From Solobacterium sp. UBA3691 (lineage in GTDB: Bacteria > Bacillota_I > Bacilli_A > Erysipelotrichales > Erysipelotrichaceae): a stretch of 39,664 nucleotides of DNA. The notes under the pieces are model-generated. The model was not told where the DNA came from. It ran no database searches and saw nothing but the letters and a program-made list of their open reading frames with translations. Below, one piece after another: positions 9,185 to 29,823 of this stretch; within the stretch, counting starts at the first letter, position 1; the number at the start of each line of letters is the position of its first letter. The translations under genes were made by a program, and so were the position numbers. The stretch lies in assembly GCA_002372175.1 (NCBI GenBank), contig DFIS01000080.1, positions 1 to 39,664 on the forward strand, written 5' to 3'.

Positions 9185-9265
9185 ACTTAAGTCTCCTTCG
9201 TAGTTTTCTGGCAAAAGCTATTCCTATTACATTTTTGGTTTATGATTCACCTATTTGTTATATTT

Positions 9266-10207: not shown

Positions 10208-10277
10208 TCTTTTTCCTATTAACGTGACAGCCCTGAGGAACAGGGTGTTTTCACGTCTCTTATTGATCTGTTTTCAT

Positions 10278-10967
10278 TTACTTGTTTCGTGCACAAAGCA
10301 CATTTCTTTCTTTCAGCTGTGCAGTAATCTTTAAACAGCTTTTCTCTGCTTCTGAACTATTCTTTTCCGTCAGATATTTCTTCAATTTTTCCATCTCGTT
10401 CAGAAGATCATATTCATGCTGGATCGTCGCATCAGACGATACCGGATCACTATATTTAAACTCTTCTGTAAGATCCTGAAGTTTTTTCTTTAATGACCCA
10501 TCCTCACAAATACTAACTAATGCTGAACAGGCTGCCTGTAATGAACGCATGTTCGTAGTATCTTTCTTTATCTTTACTTCCTGTCGTTCTACTTCTTCTC
10601 TTGCTGCATCTGCTGCTACAGTACCTATAACAGCCAATGCTGCGGGCAGTATGTTGATCACGACAGCGATCCATGTCTTTATATATGGCGCAGCAATCAT
10701 CCCAATCAGACTGATCACCAACTGGGCAATCATATACATGACTCCTACACGTGCAATAGGAAAACCATAGAATTTACTTTTTGTTTCTGCTCCGTCAGCA
10801 AACGATATTTTCAGAACATACACCTGGAATACGATGGCAATTACACCAAACAGATATGAAATCCAGAAAACAGCATTTTTATTAAATGGAGCCGCAAACG
10901 CTATAACACTGAAGACGGCAAATATTACAGAAAGGATGATATACCGACGAAGTTCGTTTTTAGACAT
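10278..10967 (-). CDS. Hypothetical 4-TM membrane protein with a ~100-aa cytoplasmic helical tail
   Basis: 229-aa ORF with four clear hydrophobic helices followed by a charged helical C-terminus (…LQDLTEEFKYSDPVSS…). Its start lies 3 nt after the SPFH gene stop, which suggests tight coupling. Confidence 0.6.
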   Translation of the reverse strand: MSKNELRRYIILSVIFAVFSVIAFAAPFNKNAVFWISYLFGVIAIVFQVYVLKISFADGAETKSKFYGFPIARVGVMYMIAQLVISLIGMIAAPYIKTWIAVVINILPAALAVIGTVAADAAREEVERQEVKIKKDTTNMRSLQAACSALVSICEDGSLKKKLQDLTEEFKYSDPVSSDATIQHEYDLLNEMEKLKKYLTEKNSSEAEKSCLKITAQLKERNVLCARNK

Positions 10968-10969
10968 GT

Positions 10970-12820: not shown

Positions 12821-13014
12821 TATAATTCTCCCTCTTCAGTGCTTTTACTTATCTCCTGAATCACTTCATTAAAAACAGTCAGACTGTTCTTCTTGTTAAT
12901 TGGTATATCAAGAATTTTTGCGTCATGATCCATATTCATTTCTGCTGATAGCCTACAAATATATACCGATATTATTTTGCCGATTTTTTGCGATCTACCA
13001 CGATATATGAACAT
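12820..13014 (-). CDS. Possible small ORF (39-64 aa) translationally coupled to the SPFH gene
   Basis: Its stop TAA overlaps the SPFH ATG (TAATG). I recognised no family and the start is uncertain (an internal MNMDHDAK... start is possible). It could be spurious. Confidence 0.25.
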   Translation of the reverse strand: MFIYRGRSQKIGKIISVYICRLSAEMNMDHDAKILDIPINKKNSLTVFNEVIQEISKSTEEGEL

Positions 13015-13152
13015 TGATCTTTTGACTTTGTTATTACAGCAAGTTCGCTCTGTCCTGCCTTACTTCCGTAAATCTCAAATACATTGCTATGTGATTATGG
13101 GATCGACGCTTTGCAACATTTCCCGGGCTTCGCTGGATTTCTGATTTTAGGA

Positions 13153-15738: not shown

Positions 15739-15905
15739 GATGATCCCTCCATTTCCCCTTATAATTGATTAAGATTATCTATTTATCGCAATTCGCTCAA
15801 TCTGGACTAAAACGTGTACTTTTTTGCTTGGTAATATGTCTAAATCAAATTTTAACATATACCGCTCTTTATGCGCATAACAATAAGGTACTTAGAAGCT
15901 AATAC

Positions 15906-16597
<692 letters not shown>

Positions 16598-16681: not shown

Positions 16682-17647
16682 TTATTTGTTTACAACGTTT
16701 ACCGGTTCACCCTGCAGGTAACCTTTGATGTTATCTACCGTCATGTCCATGATACGCTGTCTGGCTTCCTTTGCGCCCCAGGACATATGCGGTGTAATGA
16801 TGCAGTTCTTTGCGGTAAGCAGAGGATTATCACCCTTGATCGGCTCGGTGCTGGCGACGTCTACACCGGCTGCGGCGACCTTCCCTCTGTCCAGCGCATC
16901 CGCAAGATCCTGTTCAACGATCAGCGGTCCCCTGGAGTTATTCAGGATGATCACACCGTCCTTCATCTTTGCGATACTGTCCTTGTTGATGATCCCCTGT
17001 GTCTCCGGGAATAACGGACAGTGCAGGGCGATCACATCACTCTTTGTGAACAGTTCATCCAGTGTCACATAGTCTGCGATCTGTCTGCCTGCCTCATTCT
17101 CAAAGCTGTCATATGCCAGTACATGCATACCCAGTGCTTTGGCGATCTCACCGGTCCTTCTGCCGATGCGTCCGAAGCCGATGATGCCAAGTGTCTTGCC
17201 GGCCAGTTCGATCAGCGGATAATCCCAGTAACAGAAGTCGGGGCAGTTCTCCCACTTACCTTCCTTGACAGTTCTGTCATGGTGACCGATATGATGACAG
17301 ATCTCCAGCAGTAAGGCAATCGCAAACTGGGCTACGGAATCTGTACCGTATGTCGGTATATTGCATACCGGGATGCCCTTCTCTTTCGCATATGCGGTAT
17401 CGACAATGTTGTATCCGGTTGCCAGCACACTGATCATCCTGATCTGCGGACATGCGTCCAGTACATTCTTCGTGATCGGTGTCTTGTTGGTCAGTACGAC
17501 TTCTGCATCCCCGATGCGGCTGATGATCTCCTCTTCATCATGCAGAGGAGTTCTCTCATAGACTGTCAGTTCACCAAGTGCTTCTACACCTTCCCAGGAG
17601 AGATCTCCGGGATTCTCTGTATATCCGTCCAGTACTACGATCTTCAT
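16682..17647 (-). CDS. D-isomer-specific 2-hydroxyacid dehydrogenase (glycerate dehydrogenase/hydroxypyruvate reductase-like)
   Basis: 321-aa ORF with the NAD-binding motif GIIGFGRIGRRTG and a family-typical C-terminal region (NCIITPHMSWGAKEARQR). Confidence 0.85.
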   Translation of the reverse strand: MKIVVLDGYTENPGDLSWEGVEALGELTVYERTPLHDEEEIISRIGDAEVVLTNKTPITKNVLDACPQIRMISVLATGYNIVDTAYAKEKGIPVCNIPTYGTDSVAQFAIALLLEICHHIGHHDRTVKEGKWENCPDFCYWDYPLIELAGKTLGIIGFGRIGRRTGEIAKALGMHVLAYDSFENEAGRQIADYVTLDELFTKSDVIALHCPLFPETQGIINKDSIAKMKDGVIILNNSRGPLIVEQDLADALDRGKVAAAGVDVASTEPIKGDNPLLTAKNCIITPHMSWGAKEARQRIMDMTVDNIKGYLQGEPVNVVNK

Positions 17648-17650
17648 CTC

Positions 17651-19057
17651 TCACTCCACTGCGTAGATCACATCCAGAGGCTGATCCAGTCTGTCCAGTA
17701 CCTCGGCAACGATCTTATTCTTGTTTACCTTGATCTCGGCAGGAATACCGTTCATCTTATCAGCGATCTCCTTCAGTTCCTGCATCGTCTTCATCGGCAG
17801 CCTGGCCTTGGCAAACTGCTCAACGAGATCTTCTCTCTTCGGATTGACCGCAATACCATACTGTGTAACCAGGATATCCACATCCTTGCCGGGTGTAGAT
17901 ACCGTCAGTACTTTGTCTACGACGACCGGCATTCTGGCTCTGCTTACCGGAGCTACGATCATCGTCAGTTTCGCTTCTTCCGCCACATCGGTATGTCCGC
18001 CGGAGCCGCCGATGATATAACCACGGGAATCCGTATGTACATTGACGTTGAAATCCGTATCGATCTGGGTTGCGCCTAAGACAACAACATCCAGGTTTCT
18101 TGCGGCATTACTTTTAGCCGTAGGACTGGCATACTGTGTGGAAGAGATCTCGAAGTGACCGGGATCATCTCTTAACGATTCAACAGCCTTCAGGTCAAAG
18201 CACTGTACATCCTGGATCGCCTCAAAGAGTCCTTCTCTGTACATATCCACGATATAGCCGGTAATACCGCCGAGGGCATAGCTTCCCTTGATACCGCGTT
18301 CTTTCATGATGTCACGGACATATGCTGCACAGGCAAGCGAAGCCCCGCCGGCACCGGTCTGGAACGAGAAACCATCCTTCAGAAGACCTGAGGCATCGAT
18401 TGCCTTGGCCGCAAGCTCCGCAATACGCAGAGATACAGGGTCCTTTGTTACCTTTGTTGTGCTGGCAACGATACCCTGGGGATCACCGATCGCATCAACT
18501 TCGACAACATAGTCGACATAGTTTTCAGGTACCGAGAAATCCGTCAGAGGATACGGTACCAGGTTATCGGTAATGACAACAACTTTATCCGCAAAGTATG
18601 CATCCTCAAAGGCATAGCCTAGAGAACCGCAGGCAGACTTGCCGATCTTACCTGTAAAGTTACCCATCGGGTCACTTGTCGGTGCTGCGATAAACGCAAC
18701 ATCGATATGCGACTTGCCGGCAGCCAGTGAACTCGGTCTGCCTCCGTGTGTACGGAAGATCAGCGGCTTCTTCATATATCCTTCGGATACTGTCTTACCG
18801 ACTTCAATACTCATGTAGTTTGTCTCTACGCACGTTACGACACCGCTCTTGATATGTTCAGCCAACGGCGCATGTCCGGGATGGATCGAGCTGGCATTGA
18901 TCGTCAGATCCTTAAGACCGAGCTTGGCGATCTCATCCATGACCAGATTCAGCACAAAGTCACCGGAGCGCAGATGATGATGGAACGAGATGGTCATGCC
19001 ATCCCTGACACCCGCAAGCTTTACAGCTTCGGCAATACTTCCGACAAGTTTACTCAT
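17651..19057 (-). CDS. citF: Citrate lyase alpha subunit-like (citrate CoA-transferase family)
   Basis: 468-aa ORF with the CitF-typical N-terminus (GMTISFHHHLRSGD). It overlaps the citE stop by 4 nt. It is somewhat shorter than the ~510 aa typical of CitF. Confidence 0.75.
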   Translation of the reverse strand: MSKLVGSIAEAVKLAGVRDGMTISFHHHLRSGDFVLNLVMDEIAKLGLKDLTINASSIHPGHAPLAEHIKSGVVTCVETNYMSIEVGKTVSEGYMKKPLIFRTHGGRPSSLAAGKSHIDVAFIAAPTSDPMGNFTGKIGKSACGSLGYAFEDAYFADKVVVITDNLVPYPLTDFSVPENYVDYVVEVDAIGDPQGIVASTTKVTKDPVSLRIAELAAKAIDASGLLKDGFSFQTGAGGASLACAAYVRDIMKERGIKGSYALGGITGYIVDMYREGLFEAIQDVQCFDLKAVESLRDDPGHFEISSTQYASPTAKSNAARNLDVVVLGATQIDTDFNVNVHTDSRGYIIGGSGGHTDVAEEAKLTMIVAPVSRARMPVVVDKVLTVSTPGKDVDILVTQYGIAVNPKREDLVEQFAKARLPMKTMQELKEIADKMNGIPAEIKVNKNKIVAEVLDRLDQPLDVIYAVE

Positions 19058-19932
19058 ATTTCTTCTACCTCCATACCCATGGCTTTGGCGTTTTCCAGGA
19101 CCAGTCTTGCACGCATGACGATCGGTGCATCGACCATCTTACCGTTCAGGGATATCGCACCCTTGCCCTGTCTCTTGGCTTCTTCGATCGCTCTGAAGAC
19201 AGCCTTGGCATGATCAACCTCAGCAATCGTCGGGCTGAAGATACGGTTGACAGTCTCTACGTGTCTCGGGGAGATAACCGCCTTTCCGGTATAGCCGAGG
19301 CTCTTCGCAAAGGCCGCATCTTTTGCCAGGCCTTCCAGATCTTCGACATCGGTAAACGGTGTATCGTAGGCTTCAATACCGGCAGCTCTTGCGGCTGTGA
19401 CGAGTCTTCCTCTGGCGTAGAGGATCTCGTTGCCTTCCTTGGTACGCTTGCATCTGAGATCTGCGGTGAGGTCTTCCGCACCGAGATACAGAGCTTCCAT
19501 ACGCGGTGTGCTCGTGGCGATCGCAAAGGCATTCTCAATACCAATCGCTGTCTCCAGCAGCGGGATCAGCTTGATCGTACCTACCGGAATACCACATTTC
19601 TCTTCGATCTCATCCATCTTCGCAGACAGTGTCCTGCAGTACTCGGCACCGCTGACCTTGGTAGGCATGATCATATCCGGCTTCAGCGGGATCACCGCTT
19701 CCAGATCATCCACCCAGTACGGTGTATCCAGCGCATTGATACGGACAATGATCTCGCATCCGCCGAAGTCTACAGACTCCAGGGCATTCTTTACGAGTTC
19801 TCTTGCGGCATCCTTCTGATCCGGTGCTACAGCATCCTCGAGGTCGAGAATGACACTGTCAGAGCCCAGAATACCGCCGTTAATGATCATATTCGGGTTA
19901 TTACCCGGCAGAAACATCATCGTACGTCTCAT
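19054..19932 (-). CDS. citE: Citrate lyase beta subunit-like (citryl-CoA lyase, HpcH/HpaI aldolase family)
   Basis: I moved the start to the ATG at 19932 (GAAGGAGGA RBS, 1 nt after the citD stop). The N-terminus RRTMMFLPGNNPNMI...DSVILDLEDAV is typical of CitE. Confidence 0.8.
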   Translation of the reverse strand: MRRTMMFLPGNNPNMIINGGILGSDSVILDLEDAVAPDQKDAARELVKNALESVDFGGCEIIVRINALDTPYWVDDLEAVIPLKPDMIMPTKVSGAEYCRTLSAKMDEIEEKCGIPVGTIKLIPLLETAIGIENAFAIATSTPRMEALYLGAEDLTADLRCKRTKEGNEILYARGRLVTAARAAGIEAYDTPFTDVEDLEGLAKDAAFAKSLGYTGKAVISPRHVETVNRIFSPTIAEVDHAKAVFRAIEEAKRQGKGAISLNGKMVDAPIVMRARLVLENAKAMGMEVEEI

Positions 19933-19933
19933 G

Positions 19934-20203
19934 TCAGTCCTCCTTCGAAGAACGGACAAGCGCCGTCTTCAGTCTTGCCTTGATCGTACAGTCCAGAGCA
20001 CCGTGGTCAACAGCACTGACCTGTACCGAGTCCACGCCCTCTGCCCGCAGAACATCTTCGATCACGCGAATAATTGCGTCGTGGTAGTACATGTCCACCG
20101 TGGAGTCAAGATCGATCGCTACCTCACCGTTGCCGGGTGCCACCGTGATCATGACATCACTGGATTCCAGTGTACCGCACACTGCAGGATGTTTAATTAT
20201 CAT
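19934..20203 (-). CDS. citD: Citrate lyase acyl carrier protein (gamma subunit)
   Basis: I moved the start to the ATG at 20203 (GGAGGA RBS). The 89-aa protein begins MIIKHPAVCGTLESSDVMITV, which carries the conserved prosthetic-group serine context (LESSD). Confidence 0.8.
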   Translation of the reverse strand: MIIKHPAVCGTLESSDVMITVAPGNGEVAIDLDSTVDMYYHDAIIRVIEDVLRAEGVDSVQVSAVDHGALDCTIKARLKTALVRSSKED

Positions 20204-20217
20204 ACGTATGTCCTCCG

Positions 20218-20245
20218 TTCTGTATACTGTTAAATGTATACATTT
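20218..20245. promoter_or_regulatory. Two TGTATAC-core boxes including a perfect 14-bp palindrome; candidate GntR/FCD operator
   Basis: The boxes are ttctgtatactg (20218-20229) and aaatgtatacattt (20232-20245, a perfect palindrome). They lie in the divergent citD/GntR intergenic region and overlap a TTGACA (20244-20249)-16 nt-TACAAT (20266-20271) plus-strand promoter. Confidence 0.5.
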
Positions 20246-20340
20246 GACATTCTCAAAATACCACATACAATATATCTAGGCAACAAAATATTGTCATGAC
20301 ATCACGGAATACTCCGATGAACCACAGGAAAGAGGCAAGT

Positions 20341-20985
20341 ATGCGAGCATTAACAAACAATCTGACCAAAGACAGAGTCGTTGCCGAACTGCGCAAGGAG
20401 ATCCTGTACGGCAGCTATGAACCCGGTGATACCCTGTATCAGGAGAAGATCGCCGAAGAACTCGGTGTATCCAGACTCCCTGTACGGGAAGCTTTTCAGA
20501 TCCTGCACAATGAAGGACTGATCACCGTCAAGCCCAACAAGGTAGCCTATGTCAACGAGATCTCTCTGGACTTCCTGCGTGATCATTTCGCCGTCAGAGC
20601 CCTGATGGAGAAGGAAGCCGCTAGACTCGCCTGTGTCAACGGTATCGACACTGCCCCGCTGTACGAAGAATACAGGAAGGCCGAAACAGCGATCGCACGC
20701 GGAGACCTCTCTGCCTTCGACGACAGTAATCATGCGATCCATGCCATGATCTGGGAAGCGGCCGGCAATGTCGTCCTGGAGAGAATGATCTCTTCGATCT
20801 GGAATACGATGATCAGCAGTGAGGAGACTGCTCTGGAATATGCCAAAGCATCCAACCGTGATCATTTACAGATCATTGAAGCTCTTGAGAAAAGAGACAC
20901 GGAAGCTGCCATGACCCTCAGTGAGAACCATGTCAGACGAAGCTATGAAAGGATCCGCAAACGGATCTGTAAAACCGTGAAGTAG
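20341..20985 (+). CDS. GntR family transcriptional regulator, FCD (FadR C-terminal) subfamily
   Basis: I placed the start at the ATG at 20341 (AGGAAAGAGG RBS). The winged HTH is IAEELGVSRLPVREAFQILHNEGLI and is followed by an all-helical C-terminal domain. The gene is divergent from citDEF. Confidence 0.85.
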   Translation: MRALTNNLTKDRVVAELRKEILYGSYEPGDTLYQEKIAEELGVSRLPVREAFQILHNEGLITVKPNKVAYVNEISLDFLRDHFAVRALMEKEAARLACVNGIDTAPLYEEYRKAETAIARGDLSAFDDSNHAIHAMIWEAAGNVVLERMISSIWNTMISSEETALEYAKASNRDHLQIIEALEKRDTEAAMTLSENHVRRSYERIRKRICKTVK

Positions 20986-20987
20986 AC

Positions 20988-21012
20988 AAAAGCCGGTCGA
21001 TTGACCGGCTTT
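20988..21012. terminator. Bidirectional rho-independent terminator between convergent genes
   Basis: aaagccggtc-gatt-gaccggcttt forms a perfect 10-bp GC-rich stem, flanked by an A-run on one side and T's on the other. Confidence 0.7.
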
Positions 21013-21030
21013 ACTGTCCTCAGATATATA

Positions 21031-22095
21031 CTAATTATTCCTGGCATACAGTGCCTGCATTCTCTCATAGAATGCCGGATTCTCATCACCGTACTGTTTC
21101 TGGCACTCATCCAGAGCAGCCTTGTACAGACTCGTATTGATATGATTGTCGATATTGATACGGATACCCTGTGCATCCAGGAGACCCAGACGCTTCATGT
21201 AAGCCCAGGCTCTCTTTACCGAACTCCTCATCGGATCGGTATTGACCTCAAACCTCGGATTATCCATGAATGCCCTGACATGTTCCTCATCTTCACCAAG
21301 CTGCTCAGCCATCAGCTTTACAGCCTCCTCATGATGTGTCTCATAGTAAGCCATAGCCCGGATCCACGCCTTCATCAGGCCCTTCACCGCCTCCGGGTTT
21401 TCTTCTACCCACGAAGTCAGTGCCTCCGAACGGCAGCACGAATAGTCAGGCAGGACATCACTCGCATACGTCAGGATCTTGAGATTGGGATTCGTATTGA
21501 TCTCATAATTTAATCCCGTACCGACAAGTCCGAAATCCGCTTCACCCGACTCCACCGCCGCAATACGCTCTTCCTGATTCTCTGTCTCGAGCCAGGTGAC
21601 CTCCTTCAGCGGATCATAGCGCATCTCCAGCAGAGGACCGGTGATCGCGTAGAGGTTCGGCTCCCAGGCAACCGTCTTACCGATGATATCTTCAATGCCG
21701 TGCCATTCCGCATCAGCCCGCCCGAATACAGGCATACAGCCGGTAAGCAGATAGCCGCCGAAGATCGTCAGATCCATGCCCTCAGAGATATGCTGAAGAG
21801 GCAGATTCGTACCGGAATTGGTCGCAATATCGATCGTACCGTTCCTGATACCTTCAAATACTTCGATATCATTCTGTACTTTGACATATTCAATGATGAT
21901 GCCCTCATCCTTCAGGTACCCCTGTGCCTCTGCGATCGCTGTCAGCACATGCCCGTTGGGATGATCCGCAAGCCGTACCGTGATTATCTCCCGCGGTGTT
22001 TCTTCGGGGATATCCTCCTGCGGTTTTTCCGTACAGCCGGAGACTGTCAGCACACTGCTCAGGAGCACTGCCGCAATCATACTGCGTTTATTCAT
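21031..22095 (-). CDS. ABC-type substrate-binding lipoprotein (NMT1/THI5-, SsuA/TauA-like)
   Basis: 354-aa ORF with a lipoprotein signal peptide ending LTVSGC. The fold call comes from general similarity to nitrate/sulfonate/bicarbonate-type SBPs. No permease or ATPase gene is adjacent. Its start overlaps the upstream MscS-like gene by 8 nt. Confidence 0.65.
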   Translation of the reverse strand: MNKRSMIAAVLLSSVLTVSGCTEKPQEDIPEETPREIITVRLADHPNGHVLTAIAEAQGYLKDEGIIIEYVKVQNDIEVFEGIRNGTIDIATNSGTNLPLQHISEGMDLTIFGGYLLTGCMPVFGRADAEWHGIEDIIGKTVAWEPNLYAITGPLLEMRYDPLKEVTWLETENQEERIAAVESGEADFGLVGTGLNYEINTNPNLKILTYASDVLPDYSCCRSEALTSWVEENPEAVKGLMKAWIRAMAYYETHHEEAVKLMAEQLGEDEEHVRAFMDNPRFEVNTDPMRSSVKRAWAYMKRLGLLDAQGIRINIDNHINTSLYKAALDECQKQYGDENPAFYERMQALYARNN

Positions 22096-25000
22096 GTTTC
22101 ACAGCCTCCTCATTTGCCCTGGCTTCCTCTTCGGCCTTGAAATCCTCGATCGTCTTACGTCCGCTCATATCCAGCTGGGATATCGTTACATTCGGGAACG
22201 GTACATTGATACCGTTTCTGTAGAAGATCTTCAGCACCTCCGCATTCAGGTATCTGTTCATGCCCTTGACATCCTTCTCAAAGCACTTGCAGATGACCAG
22301 GACATCGATACCGCTGGCCCCGAGATTGGAAACACCCAGATATGTAGGACCATCCAGGATCAGATCATTCTTCTCTCTCAATGCCGGCAGTTCACGCTTC
22401 ATGACAGCTTCCACATAGTCGATATCCTGTCCGTATTCGATACTGATCGTTGCCGAAGCGATCGAAGCTTCCTTCGTCATGTTCAGTACACCGGAGATAT
22501 GACTGTTGTTGTAGATCTTGATATTTCCGCCGGGCGCCTGGATCTTGGTCGTACGCAGACCGATATCCATGACCGTACCTCTGGTACCGTCGATCGTCAC
22601 GATATCACCGACCCGGAATTCTCCCTCAAAGACGATGAAGATACCGGCAATGATATCCGTGATCAGACTCTGGGCGCCAAGACCGATGACAAGTGACAGA
22701 ATACCGGCACTGGCCAGAACGTTGCTCGAATCCATACCCACAAGATACAGACAGTAGAAGAAGGCACCGATGGCACCGCCGTACTTCAGCACCGACAGTA
22801 ACAGATGACCCAGGGTCTCACCTCTCGTGCCAAACAGCGACACAACAAGCTGTATCGGGAATCTGCACAGGGATACACCGACGATCGCCACGGTCATGAT
22901 CAGCACACAGGAAGTCAGCGCAAAGATATTCCATCCTCTGTCCCAGGAACTGTAGACGATATACTTGATGATCGACTTTCTGTGGATCAGACTATCCGCC
23001 CCAAGTACGGAGATCAGCACATAGATCATCAGCAGGATACAGATGATCTTGATCATTAACATCAGTTTCTGTTCGGGACTGCGCTCACTCCATGATAAAC
23101 GGCGATTGCTCCAGCGTGCTGCCGCCGTCACCGTCGAAGCCGTCCGTCCGGAAGGAAGAATAATACTGTAGACAGCCGCATTGTTTCCGCTCTCCATCTC
23201 CTTATTGAGGGACTCGTAGAGCTTCTCTTCTTCTCTGTCTGTCAGCGTGATCGTTAACGACAGGATCAGGATCAGCACAAAGCAGATCACCGACGTGATC
23301 AGGGCGATCGGCAGACGTGCCGCAAACATACTGCTGCGCGGTATTGCCGTACAGATATAGTATCCGTCAAGGTAACGGAAATACTGGAAGTATGTCTCCG
23401 TACCGATCCGGTTAAAGCCAAAGTAATTCTCACTCAGGAAGGCCTTGTCAGGAATGCCGAGATCTGCGGCCTTCTTGCCGACATTCACTTCCAGCGGTGA
23501 ATACAGACATATATGATCATCGGTCGTATCAAACATGGCAATGGAACCGCCGTCCAGCATATTCGAAGACAGAATACTGGACACATCCGTAGCCTCCAGC
23601 AGTGAATCTGTCAGTGAATCATCCAATTCGATCTGGATCATCGACCGGTGTGCCGTAATACTGCCTTCTTCCGTCTCTGTCAGCCCGGATCCGTTGATCA
23701 TATCCTCATATTCAAACCGGGAAACATACAGTGTCTCCCCGTTTTCATCCTTTGCGGTATAGTAGTGGAATACCGTACCGATATACCGGGATGTCTTACC
23801 GAGATCATTGACCATCCTCTCCTGGATATAGCTGTCTTTCCTGCCGTCGATCACATCCAGGAACGGATAGGACTGATCTCCTTCATTATGACTGATCCGG
23901 AAGAACCAGTTCGGTGTACTTGTCGCAATGGTCCTGCCGTTTTCATCATAGATATAGATCTCATTGATGCCGTTAACCTCACACAGCTTCTTCAAAGCCT
24001 GTGAATTGGCCACAGACTTCAGTCTGTTGCCCTCATCATCTGTCAGATATACTTTATTGTTGTCTTCATCATAGATACTGTGATATCTGTCTGACTCTTC
24101 ATTCAGGATCGCAGGGTCTTCCTCCGCGCCAAGTGAGACAAGGGCTGCCGTCGTCAGGAAACGCCTGTCGTGGTACTGGTTGATCAGCTGCCGGCTCTCC
24201 TGGCTCTCCTCATATCTGCCGATCACTTCCTGCAGGGCAACTTCCGACTTCTCGATGCCTTCCGTCACCTCCAGCAGTGTCTGTGTATAGAACGACAGGC
24301 CGAACATGGCCATGATGCCCGTAAGCAGCAGCGGGAAGATCTTCTTGAATATGGACTTATCCAGGTAGATCGGATCTTTCGAATTACCGCGCAGGACGAT
24401 CCTGTCGGTCTGTACCTCCCGGCGGACAAAGTCATTGCGCACAATGACCGCATATGCCAGACACAGGATCATGATGACATTAAAGGCCAGGACTGACCAG
24501 AAAGCAACATAATTGACATCCTCACGGATCATGTCATATTCTGCTGCCGCCAAGATCACCGTATGATCCGGAAGCTCCTCGGTAACCACATAATACTCAT
24601 GACCGCCGATTCTCTGCGTACCTCTGTATCCTGCTGTCAGCGCCTCTTCCGTAAGTCCGCTGTTGGCTGTCTTCTGTCCTGTTAACAGCTGATCTCCGCT
24701 GTTGTAATACCTGAAGATCCTGTCGGAGGGATCCACAGCGAAAAGGAAACCGTCGTTGATCACGGCTGCACGCTTCAGCACCGACTCAACATTCGTCAGC
24801 TCTTCCGTCTGATGATCCAGAATATCTGCTTCGGCACCGATCGCCAGGACATACTCCTGATCCTCATACCGGTATGGCTTTGCGTAGAAATAAAAGATAC
24901 CGAACCGGTTTTTCACCCGCACATATGCCGGCGCATCAGTACCGCCTGCGGCACATGCCAGCAGTTCGTTGACATTCTCCTGGGTCATATATGCAGGAAC

Positions 25001-25465
25001 AGCCGGATTCAGCCCGATCAGCGCTTCGTCCGGAGATAACAGCACCGTCCCGTCCTGATCCATCAAAAACAGCAGCTTCGTCTGTGAACGTTCGGCAATA
25101 TTCGCAAAGATCTCCGCCTGTATCATACTGTCCGCATCCTGCATTGACGCAAACAGCCCGTTCGACAGGATCATCTCCACATCATCCAGCATCTGCCGGT
25201 TGCCCGCATGAAAGACTTCAGTCAGCTCTTCCGCACTCTCCCGGTTCCTCTCGATCACTGCCGACACCTGCTCGATCGCCTGCAAACTGTTCTGTTCCTG
25301 TTTCCGCAGAGATGCTGTTACCTGCATTTTCCGCAGCAGAATACTGATCAGTGCCGATCCCACCAGCAGCAGGATAACATTAAAAGCCATCTTCGCGAAA
25401 AAGTAGACATTCGCGCGTCTCTTTGTCTTATTCTTCTGTTCTGTCACCTTGGTATCTTCACTCAT
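22088..25465 (-). CDS. Large mechanosensitive-channel (MscS) family protein with two extended extracytoplasmic sensor-like regions
   Basis: 1125-aa ORF. The C-terminal MscS core is GLGAQSLITDIIAGIFIVFEGEFRVGDIVTIDGTRGTVMDIGLRTTKIQ. There are several TM helices and two long non-hydrophobic regions between TM segments. Confidence 0.8.
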   Translation of the reverse strand: MSEDTKVTEQKNKTKRRANVYFFAKMAFNVILLLVGSALISILLRKMQVTASLRKQEQNSLQAIEQVSAVIERNRESAEELTEVFHAGNRQMLDDVEMILSNGLFASMQDADSMIQAEIFANIAERSQTKLLFLMDQDGTVLLSPDEALIGLNPAVPAYMTQENVNELLACAAGGTDAPAYVRVKNRFGIFYFYAKPYRYEDQEYVLAIGAEADILDHQTEELTNVESVLKRAAVINDGFLFAVDPSDRIFRYYNSGDQLLTGQKTANSGLTEEALTAGYRGTQRIGGHEYYVVTEELPDHTVILAAAEYDMIREDVNYVAFWSVLAFNVIMILCLAYAVIVRNDFVRREVQTDRIVLRGNSKDPIYLDKSIFKKIFPLLLTGIMAMFGLSFYTQTLLEVTEGIEKSEVALQEVIGRYEESQESRQLINQYHDRRFLTTAALVSLGAEEDPAILNEESDRYHSIYDEDNNKVYLTDDEGNRLKSVANSQALKKLCEVNGINEIYIYDENGRTIATSTPNWFFRISHNEGDQSYPFLDVIDGRKDSYIQERMVNDLGKTSRYIGTVFHYYTAKDENGETLYVSRFEYEDMINGSGLTETEEGSITAHRSMIQIELDDSLTDSLLEATDVSSILSSNMLDGGSIAMFDTTDDHICLYSPLEVNVGKKAADLGIPDKAFLSENYFGFNRIGTETYFQYFRYLDGYYICTAIPRSSMFAARLPIALITSVICFVLILILSLTITLTDREEEKLYESLNKEMESGNNAAVYSIILPSGRTASTVTAAARWSNRRLSWSERSPEQKLMLMIKIICILLMIYVLISVLGADSLIHRKSIIKYIVYSSWDRGWNIFALTSCVLIMTVAIVGVSLCRFPIQLVVSLFGTRGETLGHLLLSVLKYGGAIGAFFYCLYLVGMDSSNVLASAGILSLVIGLGAQSLITDIIAGIFIVFEGEFRVGDIVTIDGTRGTVMDIGLRTTKIQAPGGNIKIYNNSHISGVLNMTKEASIASATISIEYGQDIDYVEAVMKRELPALREKNDLILDGPTYLGVSNLGASGIDVLVICKCFEKDVKGMNRYLNAEVLKIFYRNGINVPFPNVTISQLDMSGRKTIEDFKAEEEARANEEAVKHE

Positions 25466-25514
25466 ATTCGATATTATCTGTATTTTAGATTATATACCGC
25501 AAATAAGTCTCTGC

Positions 25515-26156
25515 TCAATGCGCAGGTTCATAATGACGCACCGGGAATGTAAAGAATGTCTCCGGATACGGTTCCTGCGCCAAGGTAAAGTGCCACCACT
25601 CCTCTGCCAGAGGCACAAACCCGTGTCTTTCCATGGCATCCCTGAGAAGTTTCCGGTTTCTCTTCTGTCTCTCCGAAAGCCCTGCATATGCATAATGACT
25701 GCGTTCTCCGAAGTAATCAAAGATACCGCCCATATCGATATCCTCCCCGGTCATCCTGTCGGTCAGGGTCAGATCCACGGTACTCCCGCGGCTGTGTCCG
25801 GAATGTTTACTGACATACCCAAGAGGGATGATCTCTCTTTTCTCCGTATCGGGATAGAAGATATCCTTCATCCGGATATCCCCCGGATCCTCTGCCCAGC
25901 GCACAAAGTGATCCACGGCCTGCTGAGGACGGTAGGCATCATAGATCTTCAGTCTGTACCCTTTTGCATATACTTCATCACTGACTTCCTTCAGCGCATA
26001 CGCCGCTTCCCGCGTCAGTAATGCTGCAGGCTCCTCATAGCCGCAGATCCTCTCCCCGACAAAGTTAAATGACGTATAATACCTGATCTCCGTGATCACT
26101 TCGGGAATGATATCCCGGATATTCACAAAGTCTGATCTGTCATCCGCATACTTCAT
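25515..26156 (-). CDS. D-alanyl-D-alanine dipeptidase (VanX/DdpX, peptidase M15D)
   Basis: 213-aa ORF with the zinc/catalytic motifs SKHSGHSRGSTVDLTL and EEWWHF characteristic of VanX-type dipeptidases. Confidence 0.8.
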   Translation of the reverse strand: MKYADDRSDFVNIRDIIPEVITEIRYYTSFNFVGERICGYEEPAALLTREAAYALKEVSDEVYAKGYRLKIYDAYRPQQAVDHFVRWAEDPGDIRMKDIFYPDTEKREIIPLGYVSKHSGHSRGSTVDLTLTDRMTGEDIDMGGIFDYFGERSHYAYAGLSERQKRNRKLLRDAMERHGFVPLAEEWWHFTLAQEPYPETFFTFPVRHYEPAH

Positions 26157-26184
26157 ATTTTTATCTCTTCACACCTGCCCGTGA

Positions 26185-26493
26185 TCACATGATCCTGATC
26201 AGAAACATGTATATGACCGTACCGGCCAGGATACTGATGATCGAATTGCGCTTCCACACATGTGTCAGGACAACGCACACAGACGCGATCAGCTCCGGTA
26301 TACCGTACGGATAGCTTAGAACAGCCGTATCCTTCAGACAGTATACCACCAGCATGCCGATGATCGCCTGCGGGAGAACCTTGCCAAGATAACTGATGTA
26401 TGCCGGTGTATGTCTGCGGAAGACAAGAAACGGCAGGAATCTCAGCAGGATCGTTACGGCAGCCATCACTGCCACAAGCACAGCCGCCCTCAT
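26185..26493 (-). CDS. azlD: AzlD family branched-chain amino acid transport protein
   Basis: I moved the start to the ATG at 26493, which overlaps the azlC stop (ATGA). The ~102-aa product is hydrophobic. The upstream extension of the track ORF overlaps azlC and is D/G-rich. Confidence 0.75.
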   Translation of the reverse strand: MRAAVLVAVMAAVTILLRFLPFLVFRRHTPAYISYLGKVLPQAIIGMLVVYCLKDTAVLSYPYGIPELIASVCVVLTHVWKRNSIISILAGTVIYMFLIRIM

Positions 26494-27173
26494 ACCCGTT
26501 TCTCCATCCTTCCCCGCAGAAGTGTCAGCACCAGTGTAATCACCAGCATCGCCGGGATCAGGAATCTCTCCGGTCCGAACAGGATCAGACACACAAGCGT
26601 GCTGAAAAGCCCCGTCAGTGCCGAGACATGATCATGTGTATTCAGCCACTGCTCCGTAAACGACGCAATGAACAATGCTGTCATGGAGAACTCGATACCG
26701 GCCGTAGAAAACGGAATGACAGCCCCTAGCAGACTTCCCAGAACACATCCGGTGATCCAGTAGCTGTAATTGAACATGGAGACCAGAAAACGGTAGAGAT
26801 CCGCATGTTCACGGTCCGGTGTATCCCCGTCGCAAAGCAGGGAGTACGTTTCATCGGTCAGCGTAAAGATCATATACGGCTTATACTTACCGGCATCCTT
26901 ATATGTATCGATCATCGAGATGCTGTAGAACAAGTGCCTGGCATTGACCATGAGCGTTGTGATCGCAGTCGTCAGCACCGACGCTCCGCCTGCCAGAAGA
27001 CTCACCCCGACATACTGCATCGATCCCGCGTAGATAAACGCTCCCATTGCAAATGACCAGAGCACACCGAAACCGGCATTCCGCAGCAGAATGCCAAAGC
27101 CTATGCTCAGTACGATATAACCCGCCATGACCGGCAGGGAACGCAGAAATGCCTGCTTAACGATCCTGCCCAT
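26490..27173 (-). CDS. azlC: AzlC family branched-chain amino acid exporter subunit
   Basis: 227-aa polytopic ORF with an AzlC-like sequence (LPVMAGYIVLSIGFGILL...) and the typical azlC-azlD pairing. Confidence 0.8.
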   Translation of the reverse strand: MGRIVKQAFLRSLPVMAGYIVLSIGFGILLRNAGFGVLWSFAMGAFIYAGSMQYVGVSLLAGGASVLTTAITTLMVNARHLFYSISMIDTYKDAGKYKPYMIFTLTDETYSLLCDGDTPDREHADLYRFLVSMFNYSYWITGCVLGSLLGAVIPFSTAGIEFSMTALFIASFTEQWLNTHDHVSALTGLFSTLVCLILFGPERFLIPAMLVITLVLTLLRGRMEKRV

Positions 27174-27198
27174 GCGTTACCTCTCCAAGACTCATGCA

Positions 27199-27253
27199 TA
27201 TATTGTACACAACGGAAAACTTTACAGTATACTCATTCTGTATATATCAGTAC
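27199..27253. promoter_or_regulatory. Two operator-like boxes related to those upstream of the LeuCD-like and citD operons
   Basis: atattgtacacaa (27199-27211) differs by 1 nt from atattgtatacaa at 29080. attctgtatatatcagtac (27235-27253) shares attctgtata with 29154 and ttctgtata with 20218. Confidence 0.4.
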
Positions 27254-27287
27254 TAAAAATGCCACCCTGAGATAGCATTTGAATGTA

Positions 27288-27791
27288 TTAATCCTTTCCG
27301 AACCGTTTCCTCATCAAGGGCTTGATACCGCCTGCTTCAAGGATCATCTTCTGCTGTTCACCAAGCGGATCACAGGGCAGTACTTCACCCGTTTCCTGTA
27401 CCGTGACTGTACCCGCATCGAGATCCAGTGTCAATGTCATACCCGTCTCCACCTTCTCACTGATCCCGTGACAGACGATCGGCAAAAGTCCGAGATTGAC
27501 CGCATTCCTGTAGAAGATACGCGCAAACGAATCTGCCAGGACAGCTTTCGCACCCATCGCCAGCAAAGCGATCGGCGCATGTTCACGGCTGGATCCACAG
27601 CCGAAGTTCCTGCCTGCCGCAATGAAACCGCCCCGGGGCAAGTTCTTTGAGAAGTCAGTGCTGATCCCTTCCATACAGTGACTGCCGATCTCCTGCGGAT
27701 CGGTCAGCGCCAGGTATGCCCCGGGATAGATCTGATCTGTGTCGATATTATTGCCGACAACGGTAACCTTACCGGTGATCTTCGTTTCCAT
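27288..27791 (-). CDS. leuD: Aconitase-family dehydratase small subunit (3-isopropylmalate dehydratase LeuD-like)
   Basis: I placed the start at the second ATG (27791), 6-7 nt after AGGAGGA. The motifs GKVTVVGNNIDTDQIYPG and GRNFGCGSSREHA are LeuD/swivel-domain signatures. Confidence 0.8.
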   Translation of the reverse strand: METKITGKVTVVGNNIDTDQIYPGAYLALTDPQEIGSHCMEGISTDFSKNLPRGGFIAAGRNFGCGSSREHAPIALLAMGAKAVLADSFARIFYRNAVNLGLLPIVCHGISEKVETGMTLTLDLDAGTVTVQETGEVLPCDPLGEQQKMILEAGGIKPLMRKRFGKD

Positions 27792-27802
27792 GTCCATTCC
27801 TC

Positions 27803-29062
27803 CTAAAGATATTCACGGGGATCGGTGATCTTCCCGCTGATCATACTTGCGGCAACCGCAGCCGGACTGGCCAGATACAGCTTCGCTTCCTTGGAACCCA
27901 TACGTCCCGGGAAATTCCTGTTTGTACTGGTAATGCAGGTCTCCCCCGGCGCAATGATACCGCCGTGCACACCAAGACAGGCAGCACATCCAGGTGCCAT
28001 GATCGTTGCCCCGGCATCCATCAGATCCTGGATATACCCAAGCCTGATGCACTCCTGCATGACCTCTGCCGAAGCCGGCACGATGACAAGACGTGTATAC
28101 TTCGCAATATGTCTGTCCTTAAGGATCTTTGCGGCAACCGCGATATCCTCGACTCTTCCGCCCGTGCAGGAACCGATGTAACCCTGATCGAGGAACACAT
28201 CGCCCTGTGCCACTACACTTTCCAGCGAATGGACATTTTCAACACTGCTCGGGCAGGACAACTGCGGAGACAGCTCTGCCACGTTGAACACATAGCTCTC
28301 GGCATATGCATAACCGGGATCGGTATACTGCACCTCAAACGGTCTGACCGCACGCTTTGATACATATTCGAGGACTTCCTTGTTCGGCTGCATATACGCT
28401 GTCTTGGCACCCATCTCCACAGCCATGTTGCAGATGACCATGCGTCCTGCCACACCCAGCTCTTCAACATAGCTGCCGGTAAAGTCGATCGCCTTGTATA
28501 CGGCACCGTCGGCTCTGATCTTACCCAGAACAGCCAGGATCACATCCTTCGGGAATACCCCGGCAGGTGCCTTGCCTTCCAGTCTTACCTCAATGATCTC
28601 CGGCACCCTGAACCAGAGCTCACCGGTCATCAGGATCGTAGCCATGTCGGTCGCTCCGCAGCCTGTGCCAAGAGCCCCGAATGCACCATGTGTCGTCGTA
28701 TGACTGTCCGTTGCCACAACGATCATTCCGGGATAGATGACACCGGCTTCCGGCATCACCTGATGGCATACACCGCAGTTGGTGTCGAAGTGAAAGCGCA
28801 GGTTGTTCTTCTTTGCGAACTCACGCATCTCCTTATGGTTTGAAGCACTCTTCACATCCGGACACGGAGCATAGTGATCAAACACAAACGCACAGCGTTC
28901 ATTATCCCAGACACGTTCACCGCCCATCTCGTAGAATGAATAAACAGTCTGCAGGTACAGGTCGTTGATCTCCGCAAAATCGATCTTCGCGGTAATGATC
29001 TCCCCGGCTTTTACGGTCTCTCTGCCGCTGTTCTTAGCCAGGATCTTCTCCAAAGCGTGCAT
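27803..29062 (-). CDS. leuC: Aconitase-family dehydratase large subunit (3-isopropylmalate dehydratase LeuC-like, ~420-aa type)
   Basis: I placed the start at the ATG at 29062 (AAGGAGGA RBS). The Fe-S cluster Cys contexts are GSCTGGR and APGCAACLG, and VATDSHTTTHGA is also present. Confidence 0.8.
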   Translation of the reverse strand: MHALEKILAKNSGRETVKAGEIITAKIDFAEINDLYLQTVYSFYEMGGERVWDNERCAFVFDHYAPCPDVKSASNHKEMREFAKKNNLRFHFDTNCGVCHQVMPEAGVIYPGMIVVATDSHTTTHGAFGALGTGCGATDMATILMTGELWFRVPEIIEVRLEGKAPAGVFPKDVILAVLGKIRADGAVYKAIDFTGSYVEELGVAGRMVICNMAVEMGAKTAYMQPNKEVLEYVSKRAVRPFEVQYTDPGYAYAESYVFNVAELSPQLSCPSSVENVHSLESVVAQGDVFLDQGYIGSCTGGRVEDIAVAAKILKDRHIAKYTRLVIVPASAEVMQECIRLGYIQDLMDAGATIMAPGCAACLGVHGGIIAPGETCITSTNRNFPGRMGSKEAKLYLASPAAVAASMISGKITDPREYL

Positions 29063-29079
29063 GTTGTCCTCCTTTTTGC

Positions 29080-29174
29080 ATATTGTATACAATATACGAT
29101 TTACAAGGATAATCTAACACCAGGTTTTGCGTGTGTCAATATCATGTATAATATATTCTGTATACGATATACAG
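29080..29174. promoter_or_regulatory. Two palindromic TGTATAC-core boxes; candidate GntR/FCD operators in the divergent leuC-like/GntR region
   Basis: atattgtatacaatat (29080-29095) is a perfect 16-bp palindrome. ctgtatacgatatacag (29158-29174) has 7-bp inverted arms. A TATAAT hexamer lies at 29147-29152. Confidence 0.5.
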
Positions 29175-29181
29175 GAGATGT

Positions 29182-29823
29182 ATGATGGAACCTTTTGAAG
29201 TGATGCCTGTCAGAGTCCGGCTGACAGCTGTATTAAAGAAAGCGATCTATACCGGTGAGATCAAAAGCGGACAGGAGCTGAGCCTGACGGATATTGCCGA
29301 AAAGACCGGTGTCAGCCGCACACCTGTACGTGAAGCCTTCCAGGCCCTGGCTGCCGAAGGACTGATCACCCTGCGTATGAACAAGGGTGCGATCGTCAAC
29401 CCGATCGATGCCGGCTTCATCCGTGATCACTACGAACTGCGGGCACTGCTGGAGGCTGACAGCGCTGCCAGAGCCGCCGGACAGAAACCGGATGTATCCG
29501 CCCTGCTGGAACGCCTGCAGACAATGCGTGAACATACCGATACTGTTTCTGCTGAAGATTATGAGAAACTGAACCAGGATATCCACATGACGCTCTGGAA
29601 CGTATCCGGAAACAAGCGCATCAAGACCCTGCTCATGGATCTCTGGAACGGTCCGAGCACCGGTGAGACTGCGGAGGAAAAACGGCAGCACTACGCTGAA
29701 TCTACCGCTGAACACATCGAGATCCTCGAAGCTGTACAGCGCGGAGACAGCGAAACAGCCGGAAAGGTAATGAAAAAACACATCCTGCGCAGTATGCAGA
29801 ATATCCTGAAGTATTATCAGTAG
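29182..29823 (+). CDS. GntR family transcriptional regulator, FCD subfamily (paralogue of 20341..20985)
   Basis: The HTH is IAEKTGVSRTPVREAFQALAAEGLI. The C-terminal helical FCD-like domain shows detectable similarity to the other GntR (FIRDHYELRALLE vs FLRDHFAVRALME). The start may be the second ATG at 29185. Confidence 0.85.
   Translation: MMEPFEVMPVRVRLTAVLKKAIYTGEIKSGQELSLTDIAEKTGVSRTPVREAFQALAAEGLITLRMNKGAIVNPIDAGFIRDHYELRALLEADSAARAAGQKPDVSALLERLQTMREHTDTVSAEDYEKLNQDIHMTLWNVSGNKRIKTLLMDLWNGPSTGETAEEKRQHYAESTAEHIEILEAVQRGDSETAGKVMKKHILRSMQNILKYYQ

Follow-up and report, generated by a model that had tools for sequence, protein, structure and literature searches.

Two GntR loci and their neighboring operons

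The stretch analyzed here (the window) comprises 39,664 nt (39.7 kb) of contig DFIS01000080.1 from Solobacterium sp. UBA3691, and the matrix scans and the GTATAC counts were limited to it. It contains two genes for GntR/FadR-type regulators with an FCD domain, gntR1 and gntR2. The gntR1 gene lies opposite a citDEF-like lyase cluster and gntR2 lies opposite a leuC/leuD-like pair, behind which azlC and azlD follow. A first-pass annotation of this DNA had joined the citDEF-like, LeuCD-like and azlCD operons in one GntR/FCD regulon on the basis of a common operator motif; comparison with orthologous loci pointed instead to two separate regulator–operator systems. The underlying gene calls (citD, citE and citF, the two GntR–FCD regulators, the LeuC/LeuD-like pair, and azlC and azlD) were upheld:

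16682-17647, minus strand: D-2-hydroxyacid dehydrogenase gene (Pfam and NCBIfam matches)
17651-19057, minus strand: citF (Pfam and NCBIfam matches)
19054-19932, minus strand: citE-like gene (Pfam and NCBIfam matches)
19934-20203, minus strand: citD (Pfam and NCBIfam matches)
16682-20203, minus strand: putative GntR1 target operon citD-citE-citF-dehydrogenase (Pfam/NCBIfam; same gene set beside orthologs)
20341-20985, plus strand: gntR1, GntR winged helix plus FCD, 214 amino acids (aa) (PF00392 and PF07729)
26185-26496, minus strand: azlD (gene call upheld)
26490-27173, minus strand: azlC (gene call upheld)
27288-27797, minus strand: leuD-like gene, aconitase-family dehydratase subunit (domain matches)
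27803-29062, minus strand: leuC-like gene, aconitase-family dehydratase subunit (domain matches)
27288-29062, minus strand: putative GntR2 target operon, leuC-like plus leuD-like (subfamily models and constant neighbors)
29182-29823, plus strand: gntR2, GntR winged helix plus FCD, 213 aa (PF00392 and PF07729)

GntR1 matched PF00392 with E = 1.3e-16 (above the Pfam cut-off) and PF07729 with E = 9.3e-19; the corresponding values for GntR2 were 8.1e-14 (likewise above the cut-off) and 2.2e-20. The two regulators are 37% identical, and the closest solved structures are FCD proteins.

The GntR2 operator at the leuCD-like locus

Homologs of GntR2 are common (628 proteins at E <= 1e-20). By a reference-genome scan with the homolog alignment, together with look-ups of closer relatives, we found 16 further loci (13 non-redundant) in which a GntR2 ortholog (44–93% identical) is transcribed divergently from a leuC/leuD-like pair. 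This pair was the only constant neighbor. A conserved third gene of the operon was ruled out, the genes after leuD being variable (MR_MLE enzyme, LysR regulator, polymerase IV-like protein, alanine symporter). The pair in the window passed the broader subfamily models only (NF001614, TIGR01343 and TIGR02087) and failed both equivalog models, with scores of 427 against a cut-off of 611 for LeuC (TIGR02083) and 150 against 246 for LeuD (TIGR02084).

The sequence ATAT[T/C]GTATAC[A/G]ATAT was present in the intergenic region of every further locus (21 sites in the 13 non-redundant loci) and was kept while the remaining intergenic sequence diverged; T at -5 and A at +5 were invariant in 21/21 sites. 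When k-mers were counted without a presupposed motif, the 10-mers ATATCGTATA, GTATACGATA and ATATTGTATA were shared by 11, 10 and 9 of the 13 loci, respectively, and counting of this kind recovered the operators of both regulators. The GntR2 matrix was built from the 21 sites, which had been picked for the GTATAC core and came from other genomes only, with no window sequence. P values for matrix scores were derived from region-specific dinucleotide shuffles (n = 2000). The leuC–gntR2 intergenic region contains the following features:

29080-29095, no strand: putative GntR2 operator O1, ATATTGTATACAATAT, a perfect 16-bp palindrome centered 25.5 nt upstream of the leuC-like ATG
29093-29100, no strand: candidate extra half-site TACGATTT, 9 bp from the O1 center; 13.0 bits, third-best match in the window
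29111-29139, minus strand: predicted leuC-like promoter TTGACA-17-TAGATT with TG; O1 is centered 23 nt after its -10 box
29147-29152, plus strand: gntR2 -10 box TATAAT (read directly); O2 starts 3 nt downstream
29155-29170, no strand: putative GntR2 operator O2, ATTCTGTATACGATAT, 14/16 to the consensus, centered 19.5 nt upstream of the gntR2 ATG

O1 scored 30.3 bits with the GntR2 matrix and O2, the second-best match in the window, 22.9 bits; none of the 2000 shuffles equaled either score. The half-site beside O1 recurs as GTATACAATATACGAT(A/T)T, that is TACGAT(A/T)T, in loci L003, L005, L006, L016, L168 and L172, and as the variant GTATACGATATACGATTT in L011. A second dimer or a higher-order complex may bind there; additional weaker half-sites have been described for the GntR/FadR family (Suvorova et al. 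2015, PMC4494728).

The placement of both sites was conserved as well. An O1-type site lay 18–25 nt after the -10 box of a TTGACA-17-TAnnnT promoter in 9/14 loci and, in seven loci, had its center 28.5–36.5 nt before the leuC start codon (window: 25.5 nt). The counterpart of O2 in the 93% identical relative (L171) reads ATTCTGTATACAATAT, and TGTATAAT followed by the operator is kept in L016, L168 and L172. In five loci, O2-type sites had their centers 18.5–28.5 nt before the gntR2 start codon, 10–15 nt after TATAAT; no good candidate for a gntR2 -35 box was found in the window. As the intergenic region grows from 75 to 186 bp, the two sites separate and each stays near its own gene. This layout matches the class of "separate double sites", in which each site controls its own operon (PMC4494728).

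The GntR1 operator at the citDEF-like locus

GntR1 orthologs are rare: about 20 were found, at 45–87% identity. All of the 12 ortholog loci examined adjoin citrate-lyase-type genes. The arrangement citD-citE-citF was seen in nine, of which seven were non-redundant at the species level, and two cut contigs showed only citF. A D-2-hydroxyacid dehydrogenase gene was a frequent addition, and a 2HCT transporter gene occurred in a single locus. With the equivalog models, citD (90 against a cut-off of 63.5) and citF (577 against 501) of the window passed, and citE failed (332 against 443). The annotated genes of the window include no citC, citX or citG, and none was called in the nine citD-citE-citF loci (L083-L086, L088, L089, L173-L175). 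These genes could be elsewhere in the genome, and citrate may not be the substrate of the lyase.

A scan of human-gut metagenomes for GntR1 orthologs returned mostly paralogs of about 40% identity, and only L088-L091 were useful. In the contigs L092-L167 from these metagenomes, a paralog that is very common and shares about 40% identity with GntR1 lies directly downstream of a second, shorter GntR-like frame; this tandem arrangement occurs in dozens of human-gut contigs.

The citD–gntR1 intergenic region contains the following features:

20218-20231, no strand: putative secondary GntR1 site TTCTGTATACTGTT, on the citD side of the main operator at a center distance of 14 bp
20232-20245, no strand: putative main GntR1 operator AAATGTATACATTT, a perfect 14-bp palindrome (read directly)
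20244-20271, plus strand: predicted gntR1 promoter TTGACA-16-TACAAT, 11/12 consensus positions; its -35 box overlaps the operator arm by two bases
20269-20297, minus strand: candidate citD promoter ATGACA-17-TATATT (consensus scan only, 10/12 positions)

The consensus of the orthologous loci is (C/T)AAATGTAT(A/C)CATTT, and the operator is kept in L083, L085, L086, L088, L089, L173 and L174. Its center is usually GTATCC (L085, L088, L089, twice in L173, and L174); GTATAC is found in the window, L083 and L086. The block CTGTATACTGTTAAATGTATACATTTGACA is identical in L086, the regulator of which is 56% identical to GntR1. With a GntR1 matrix based on only eight sites from orthologous loci of other genomes and no window sequence, the main operator scored 25.2 bits, which was the top match in the window and was equaled by 0/2000 shuffles.

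The pair of main and secondary sites is also present in L083 and L086, and in L173 the sequence AAACAGTATCCAAGA lies 15 bp from the main site, likewise on the citD side. Because these three loci share the layout, we interpret 20218-20231 as a conserved, weaker second GntR1 site, even though its conservation is limited to the core and the 9-mer ACAGTATAC also occurs twice inside genes of the window. Direct reading placed the two palindromes reported in the first-pass annotation, AAATGTATACATTT at 20232-20245 and ATATTGTATACAATAT at 29080-29095, where it had them, and the same holds for the TTCTGTATAC boxes at 20218-20229 and 29154-29174. These "ttctgtata" boxes had been listed as second boxes; they are not a motif of their own but extra copies of the same operators, the box at 29154-29174 being O2.

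The two-base overlap between the palindrome and TTGACA-16-TACAAT at 20244-20271 was likewise confirmed. In L086, L089, L090 and L174 the operator is also fused to ATTTGACA, the gntR1 -35 box, which fits the earlier suggestion of gntR1 autoregulation. On the other side, both GntR1 sites lie downstream of the candidate citD promoter, in the leader, and span 15–42 nt upstream of the citD ATG. The remaining gap of 14 nt holds the ribosome-binding site, and therefore the citD promoter cannot be downstream of the sites. At both loci of the window, the 14–18 nt from the sites to the start codons hold no more than a ribosome-binding site, indicating that the promoters should lie upstream of the sites or overlap them, as expected for repressors.

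This geometry bears on the possibility that GntR1 activates transcription in response to a ligand, as does CitO of Enterococcus faecalis, an FCD-type GntR protein that controls citrate-lyase genes from a divergent region with two sites (PMC4746285). The CitO sites lie at -41 to -74, whereas the GntR1 sites leave only 14 nt to the citD ATG and reach over the gntR1 -35 box. No promoter fits downstream of the sites, and in L173 the site follows the predicted citD -10 box. An activator role is, in our judgment, very improbable.

Two operator motifs with a common core

An 8-bp core is identical at 20235-20242 and 29084-29091. GTATAC, the center of this core, has 26 copies in the window where 5.6 are expected (a 4–5-fold over-representation), of which 21 are intragenic; we suspect that the excess stems from codon and dipeptide usage. 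Because GTATAC is enriched inside genes, whole-window shuffle statistics inflate the significance of motifs built on this core. Whole-window shuffles for short cores were dropped, since both GTATAC and ACAGTATAC are enriched intragenically, and were replaced by the ortholog matrices and region-specific shuffles. The remaining matches to TGTATACA and TTCTGTATA in the window (3153, 32817, 37220, 37636 and 37921) are all intragenic.

It could be argued from the GTATAC excess, if it extends genome-wide, and from the resemblance of TACAAT/TATAAT -10 boxes to operator half-sites, that the motifs are chance products of AT-rich promoters. We give this reading almost no credence, because the motifs of the GntR regions are kept in loci whose regulators are only 44–59% identical and 0/2000 shuffles equaled their scores. 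AT-rich background, the explanation that would have undone the earlier proposal, is thereby excluded for the two GntR regions, and is the likeliest one only for the boxes upstream of azlC (see below).

When the sites were aligned at their centers, the GntR1 type read A-A-A-T-GTA and the GntR2 type (A)-T-A-T-Y-GTA, with opposite bases at +/-5 and +/-7 in every site. The ortholog-only matrices of both regulators were then run over the window, with the following scores:

GntR2 O1, 29080-29095: GntR2 matrix 30.3 bits; GntR1 matrix 10.6 bits
GntR2 O2, 29155-29170: GntR2 matrix 22.9 bits; GntR1 matrix, outside the top 25
GntR1 operator, 20232-20245: GntR2 matrix 2.6 bits; GntR1 matrix 25.2 bits
Best matches at unrelated window positions: GntR2 matrix 5.9–7.5 bits; GntR1 matrix 11.8 and 10.6 bits

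Cross-matrix scores of 2.6–10.6 bits were thus on a par with chance intragenic matches. The regulators themselves differ in a corresponding manner. The recognition regions, GVSRLPVREAF in GntR1 and GVSRTPVREAF in GntR2, had been called nearly identical, and the sequences are as reported. The differing residue, however, is fixed in each group with one exception: the residue after SR (T47 in GntR2, L46 in GntR1) is always T among the GntR2 orthologs, whereas 19/20 GntR1 sequences of alignment A2 have M or L there and P0130 has T. The wings also differ, MNKGA in GntR2 orthologs versus PNKVA in GntR1 orthologs. A comparative study links a recognition-helix position to specificity (PMC4494728), and we infer that the residue after SR maps to that position.

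Clostridium sp. OM02-18AC carries both systems (L011 and L085), with clearly different sites, ATATCGTATACGATAT and TAATGTATCCATTT. In L085 of this strain, a third FCD-type GntR paralog is found at 10405-11600, following the cit genes and preceding a DctP TRAP-transporter gene; it has TTGTATACAAT sites, with ATGTCATGTATACAATGCA and TTGACATTGTATACAATACGA in the two upstream regions. Because this third paralog carries GTATAC-centered sites too, the GTATAC center is a trait of the whole clade.

These results bear directly on the single cross-regulated regulon proposed earlier, in which either or both regulators would bind all three regions through their like helices and the TGTATACA core. It draws on the identity of the 8-bp core at both GntR loci, on recognition helices that differ at one residue, on cross-matrix scores nominally above those of shuffles (8.7 and 10.6 bits, P about 0.03), and on the presence of GTATAC and a perfect ATATTGTA half-site in the azlC region. 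However, the flank differences at +/-5 and +/-7 are fixed across orthologs, each matrix finds its own locus only, and the cross scores lie 15–20 bits under those of the true sites, equal to chance intragenic matches. The GntR2 type is common (628 proteins) and the GntR1 type rare (about 20), which argues for separate evolutionary modules; the sites in OM02-18AC are distinct, and the azlC boxes are not conserved. We therefore consider one shared regulon unlikely by a wide measure.

The azlC upstream region

The following features lie in the 114 bp between leuD and azlC, which share a strand:

27200-27215, no strand: azlC box 1, ATATTGTACACAACGG, a perfect left half-site only
27224-27233, no strand: azlC box 2, ACAGTATACT
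27235-27250, no strand: azlC box 3, ATTCTGTATATATCAG (read directly)
27257-27280, minus strand: hairpin and U-run, candidate terminator just after the leuD stop; 10-bp stem in the minimum-energy and centroid folds

The first-pass annotation had listed one-mismatch versions of the operators here. The sequence ATTCTGTATATATCAG lies at 27235-27250 as reported, and ATATTGTACACAA is present as well, at 27200-27212 and not at 27199-27211, a shift of one base. The description as one-mismatch boxes is true for the truncated boxes only; compared with the full 16-bp GntR2 operator, they match at 12/16 and 10/16 positions. The best GntR2-matrix score in the region was 5.8 bits (P = 0.015) or 4.5 bits (P = 0.05), and the best GntR1-matrix score was 4.1 bits (P = 0.23). 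The core of box 1 is GTACAC, with C at a position invariant in 21/21 GntR2 sites, and its right half matches at 4/8. On the azlC strand, box 1 reads TACAAT, a -10-like hexamer with a poor -35; no strong promoter was predicted upstream of azlC.

Among the loci examined, azlCD lies beside leuCD in this lineage only. Relatives with a 75% identical GntR2 have an MR_MLE enzyme gene after leuD. In the sister Solobacterium-like metagenome-assembled genomes (L176-L179), in which AzlC is 95% identical, the block azlC-azlD-M15 peptidase (dipeptidase) is kept, and L177 also keeps the MscS-like (1125-aa) and NMT1-like genes after it. There the block stands behind an esterase gene and the upstream region is unrelated and without GTATAC, indicating that a rearrangement created the leuD–azlC junction in this lineage. 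For the same reason, namely the different upstream gene and unrelated sequence in the sisters, footprinting of the azlC upstream region had nothing to align. A riboswitch or leader was ruled out: there was no Rfam match, here or anywhere in the window, and apart from the leuD hairpin the region folded like its shuffles (z = -0.07). The idea that the azlC intergenic region is a copy of a GntR intergenic region was also rejected, as the local alignment was marginal (P = 0.01) and its orientation relative to the genes was wrong.

We conclude that the azlC boxes are probably not operators, and most likely represent chance AT-rich sequence. Membership of azlCD in the shared regulon was not supported: its boxes are weak and are not kept in the sisters, and azlCD was found beside leuCD in none of the other loci examined. 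A narrower proposal is that azlCD came under GntR2 in this lineage alone, through read-through from leuCD or through a low-affinity ATATTGTA half-site over the -10-like TACAAT. Read-through is possible because the hairpin is weak: it is AT-rich and the terminator scan did not call it. The co-oriented genes 114 bp apart, the half-site P values of 0.015–0.05 and the lack of a strong predicted azlC promoter point the same way. On the other side, the hairpin with its U-run is a plausible terminator, GTACAC violates the invariant core position (21/21) in a site whose right half matches at only 4/8, the azlCD of the sisters has an unrelated promoter region, and leuCD is followed by other genes elsewhere. 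We regard such lineage-restricted control as doubtful, though conceivable.

A model of two local repressor systems

We favor, with a probability of about 75%, two independent paralogous local GntR/FadR (FCD) repressor systems over one regulon. The model rests on comparative sequence analysis: the motif sequences, their positions, their conservation and the discrimination between the matrices were observed, and binding, repression and the kind of ligand are deduced from them. A GntR2 dimer would bind the 16-bp palindrome. O1 and the adjacent half-site would lie in the early transcribed region of the divergent leuC/leuD-like operon, and O2 would cover the gntR2 transcript start, which suggests that GntR2 acts as a repressor of its own gene as well as of the target operon. 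GntR1 would bind AAATGTAT[A/C]CATTT at 20232-20245 and, more weakly, the neighboring site at 20218-20231; with these sites in the citD operon leader and overlapping the gntR1 -35 box, one site pair could repress transcription in both directions. The TGTATACA center common to both operators would reflect the shared ancestry of the two DNA-binding domains, with the flanks conferring specificity. Each repressor would be released from its operators by an organic acid that probably binds at the FCD metal site. One Asp and three His residues, candidate metal ligands, are invariant in each orthologous group (D82/H135/H178/H200 and D81/H134/H175/H197), as would be consistent with the carboxylate binding aided by a metal that is known for the family. 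The azlCD operon would be a conserved member of neither regulon, and if a link to GntR2 exists in this lineage, read-through from leuCD would account for it no less readily than the weak boxes.

Several observations weigh against this model. The citD promoter and the gntR2 -35 box are weak predictions, and the GntR1 matrix is based on only the eight sites mentioned. The GntR2 matrix, built from sites selected for GTATAC, penalizes the GTACAC of the azlC region too heavily. Of the intergenic regions in the window that do not adjoin a GntR gene, only that of azlC contains GTATAC, and it has the top GntR2-matrix score among them. Furthermore, the GntR1 operators of the window and L086 have GTATAC and not the GTATCC of most orthologs, so that their 8-bp core is that of GntR2. 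In DipR of Alcaligenes faecalis the 6-bp operator center is the main binding determinant (PMC11472048), and because of this precedent and the identical 8-bp core, some cross-binding between GntR1 and GntR2 is conceivable.

A lineage-specific cross-talk could have arisen if the change of the GntR1 center from GTATCC to GTATAC was combined with the move of azlCD behind leuCD and the gain of a new half-site. In that event, the citDEF-like lyase, the LeuCD-like dehydratase and the AzlCD-type exporter (its family has links to branched-chain amino acids) would answer one organic-acid signal. We hold this combination to be highly improbable.

The two-system model provides operator models and target assignments for two uncharacterized FCD-type GntR groups of gut and rumen Firmicutes. 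The GntR2 group is widespread and always found with the LeuCD-like dehydratase, and the GntR1 group is rare and always found with the citDEF-like lyase. The inducer of such regulators is usually a substrate or intermediate of the pathway, and both regulators could therefore help to find the substrates of the two enzyme systems. Clostridial FadR-type regulators are barely covered so far, with only one analyzed in the published comparative study (PMC4494728). The two loci also illustrate that an operator core common to paralogs is no evidence of a common regulon.

Other features of the window

The region 6554-16567, beside the cit cluster, has a GC content of 37–42% compared with about 51% elsewhere in the window. 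It contains paralogous proteins with TIR, TPR and DUF6273 domains at 6554-9214 and 13153-15738, an SPFH/Band 7 protein (10970-12820), two open reading frames without a Pfam match and a serine resolvase (15986-16567), and looks like an inserted mobile island of the defense type. Between gntR1 and azlD, an NMT1/THI5-like substrate-binding protein gene (21031-22095) overlaps by 8 nt the gene for a 1125-aa protein (22088-25465), in which Pfam recognizes the C-terminal MscS channel domain only; this pairing is unusual.

Comparison with known systems

Operators of the FadR subfamily have been defined as NyGT-N(2-3)-ACNy (PMC4494728). The boxes TTGT-AT-ACAA of GntR2 and ATGT-AT-ACAT of GntR1 agree with this definition and with the TKGT/ACMA boxes, having GT and AC 2 nt apart, and are kept in the orthologous loci; the earlier identification of the palindromes as GntR/FadR-type operators was thus borne out. 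GntR, UxuR, HpxS, HypR, MdcY and PrpR form the GT-N2-AC group (Suvorova et al. 2015, PMC4494728). Both regulators resemble this group in the GntR winged helix-turn-helix with an all-helical FCD-type domain, the AT-rich TKGT/ACMA palindromes with a 2-nt center, the divergent orientation of regulator and target, and the single or double sites with weaker half-sites nearby. They differ in origin, the known groups being mostly proteobacterial with one clostridial FadR-type factor analyzed; LeuCD-like dehydratase and citDEF-like lyase targets are not among the groups named in the passages of that study considered here.

A literature search for the operator sequence of Bacillus subtilis GntR found nothing; the putative sequence ATACTTGTATACAAGTAT was not used as evidence. 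The operator of Escherichia coli UxuR, AAATTGGTATACCAATTT, is a GTATAC-centered palindrome with AT-rich arms, and UxuR is an FCD-type repressor released by a sugar acid (PMC8092373). The center is the same as here, but the flanks are GGTATACC as compared with TGTATACA, and no orthology is implied: the Uxu operon regulator model NF007588 gave 34.6 and 21.7 bits for the two regulators against a cut-off of 442. DipR is a GntR/FadR repressor with footprinted GTATAC-centered sites at several promoters, including its own, from which a carboxylate ligand releases it (PMC11472048). Unlike DipR, which serves six transcription units of one catabolic cluster, GntR1 and GntR2 each appear to be limited to the neighboring operon and themselves.

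CitO resembles GntR1 as an FCD-type GntR protein beside citrate-lyase genes with two sites in the divergent intergenic region, and it binds an organic acid in a metal-dependent manner, with the three-His FCD site of Gao et al. (2008) quoted in the same paper (PMC4746285). It differs in being an activator with sites upstream of the -35 boxes, in contrast to the repressor positions of the GntR1 sites, and the cit cluster studied here lacks citC, citX, citG and the oad genes. The closest solved structure to GntR2 is TM0439 of Thermotoga maritima (PDB 3fms and 3sxy; E = 5.5e-21 and 2.9e-20), a full-length GntR–FCD protein named by its depositors only as a GntR family transcriptional regulator, with nothing said of operator or ligand. 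As a whole, GTATAC-centered operators are already known for the FadR subfamily, and the operators of GntR1 and GntR2 are not a new regulatory principle but further cases of this kind.

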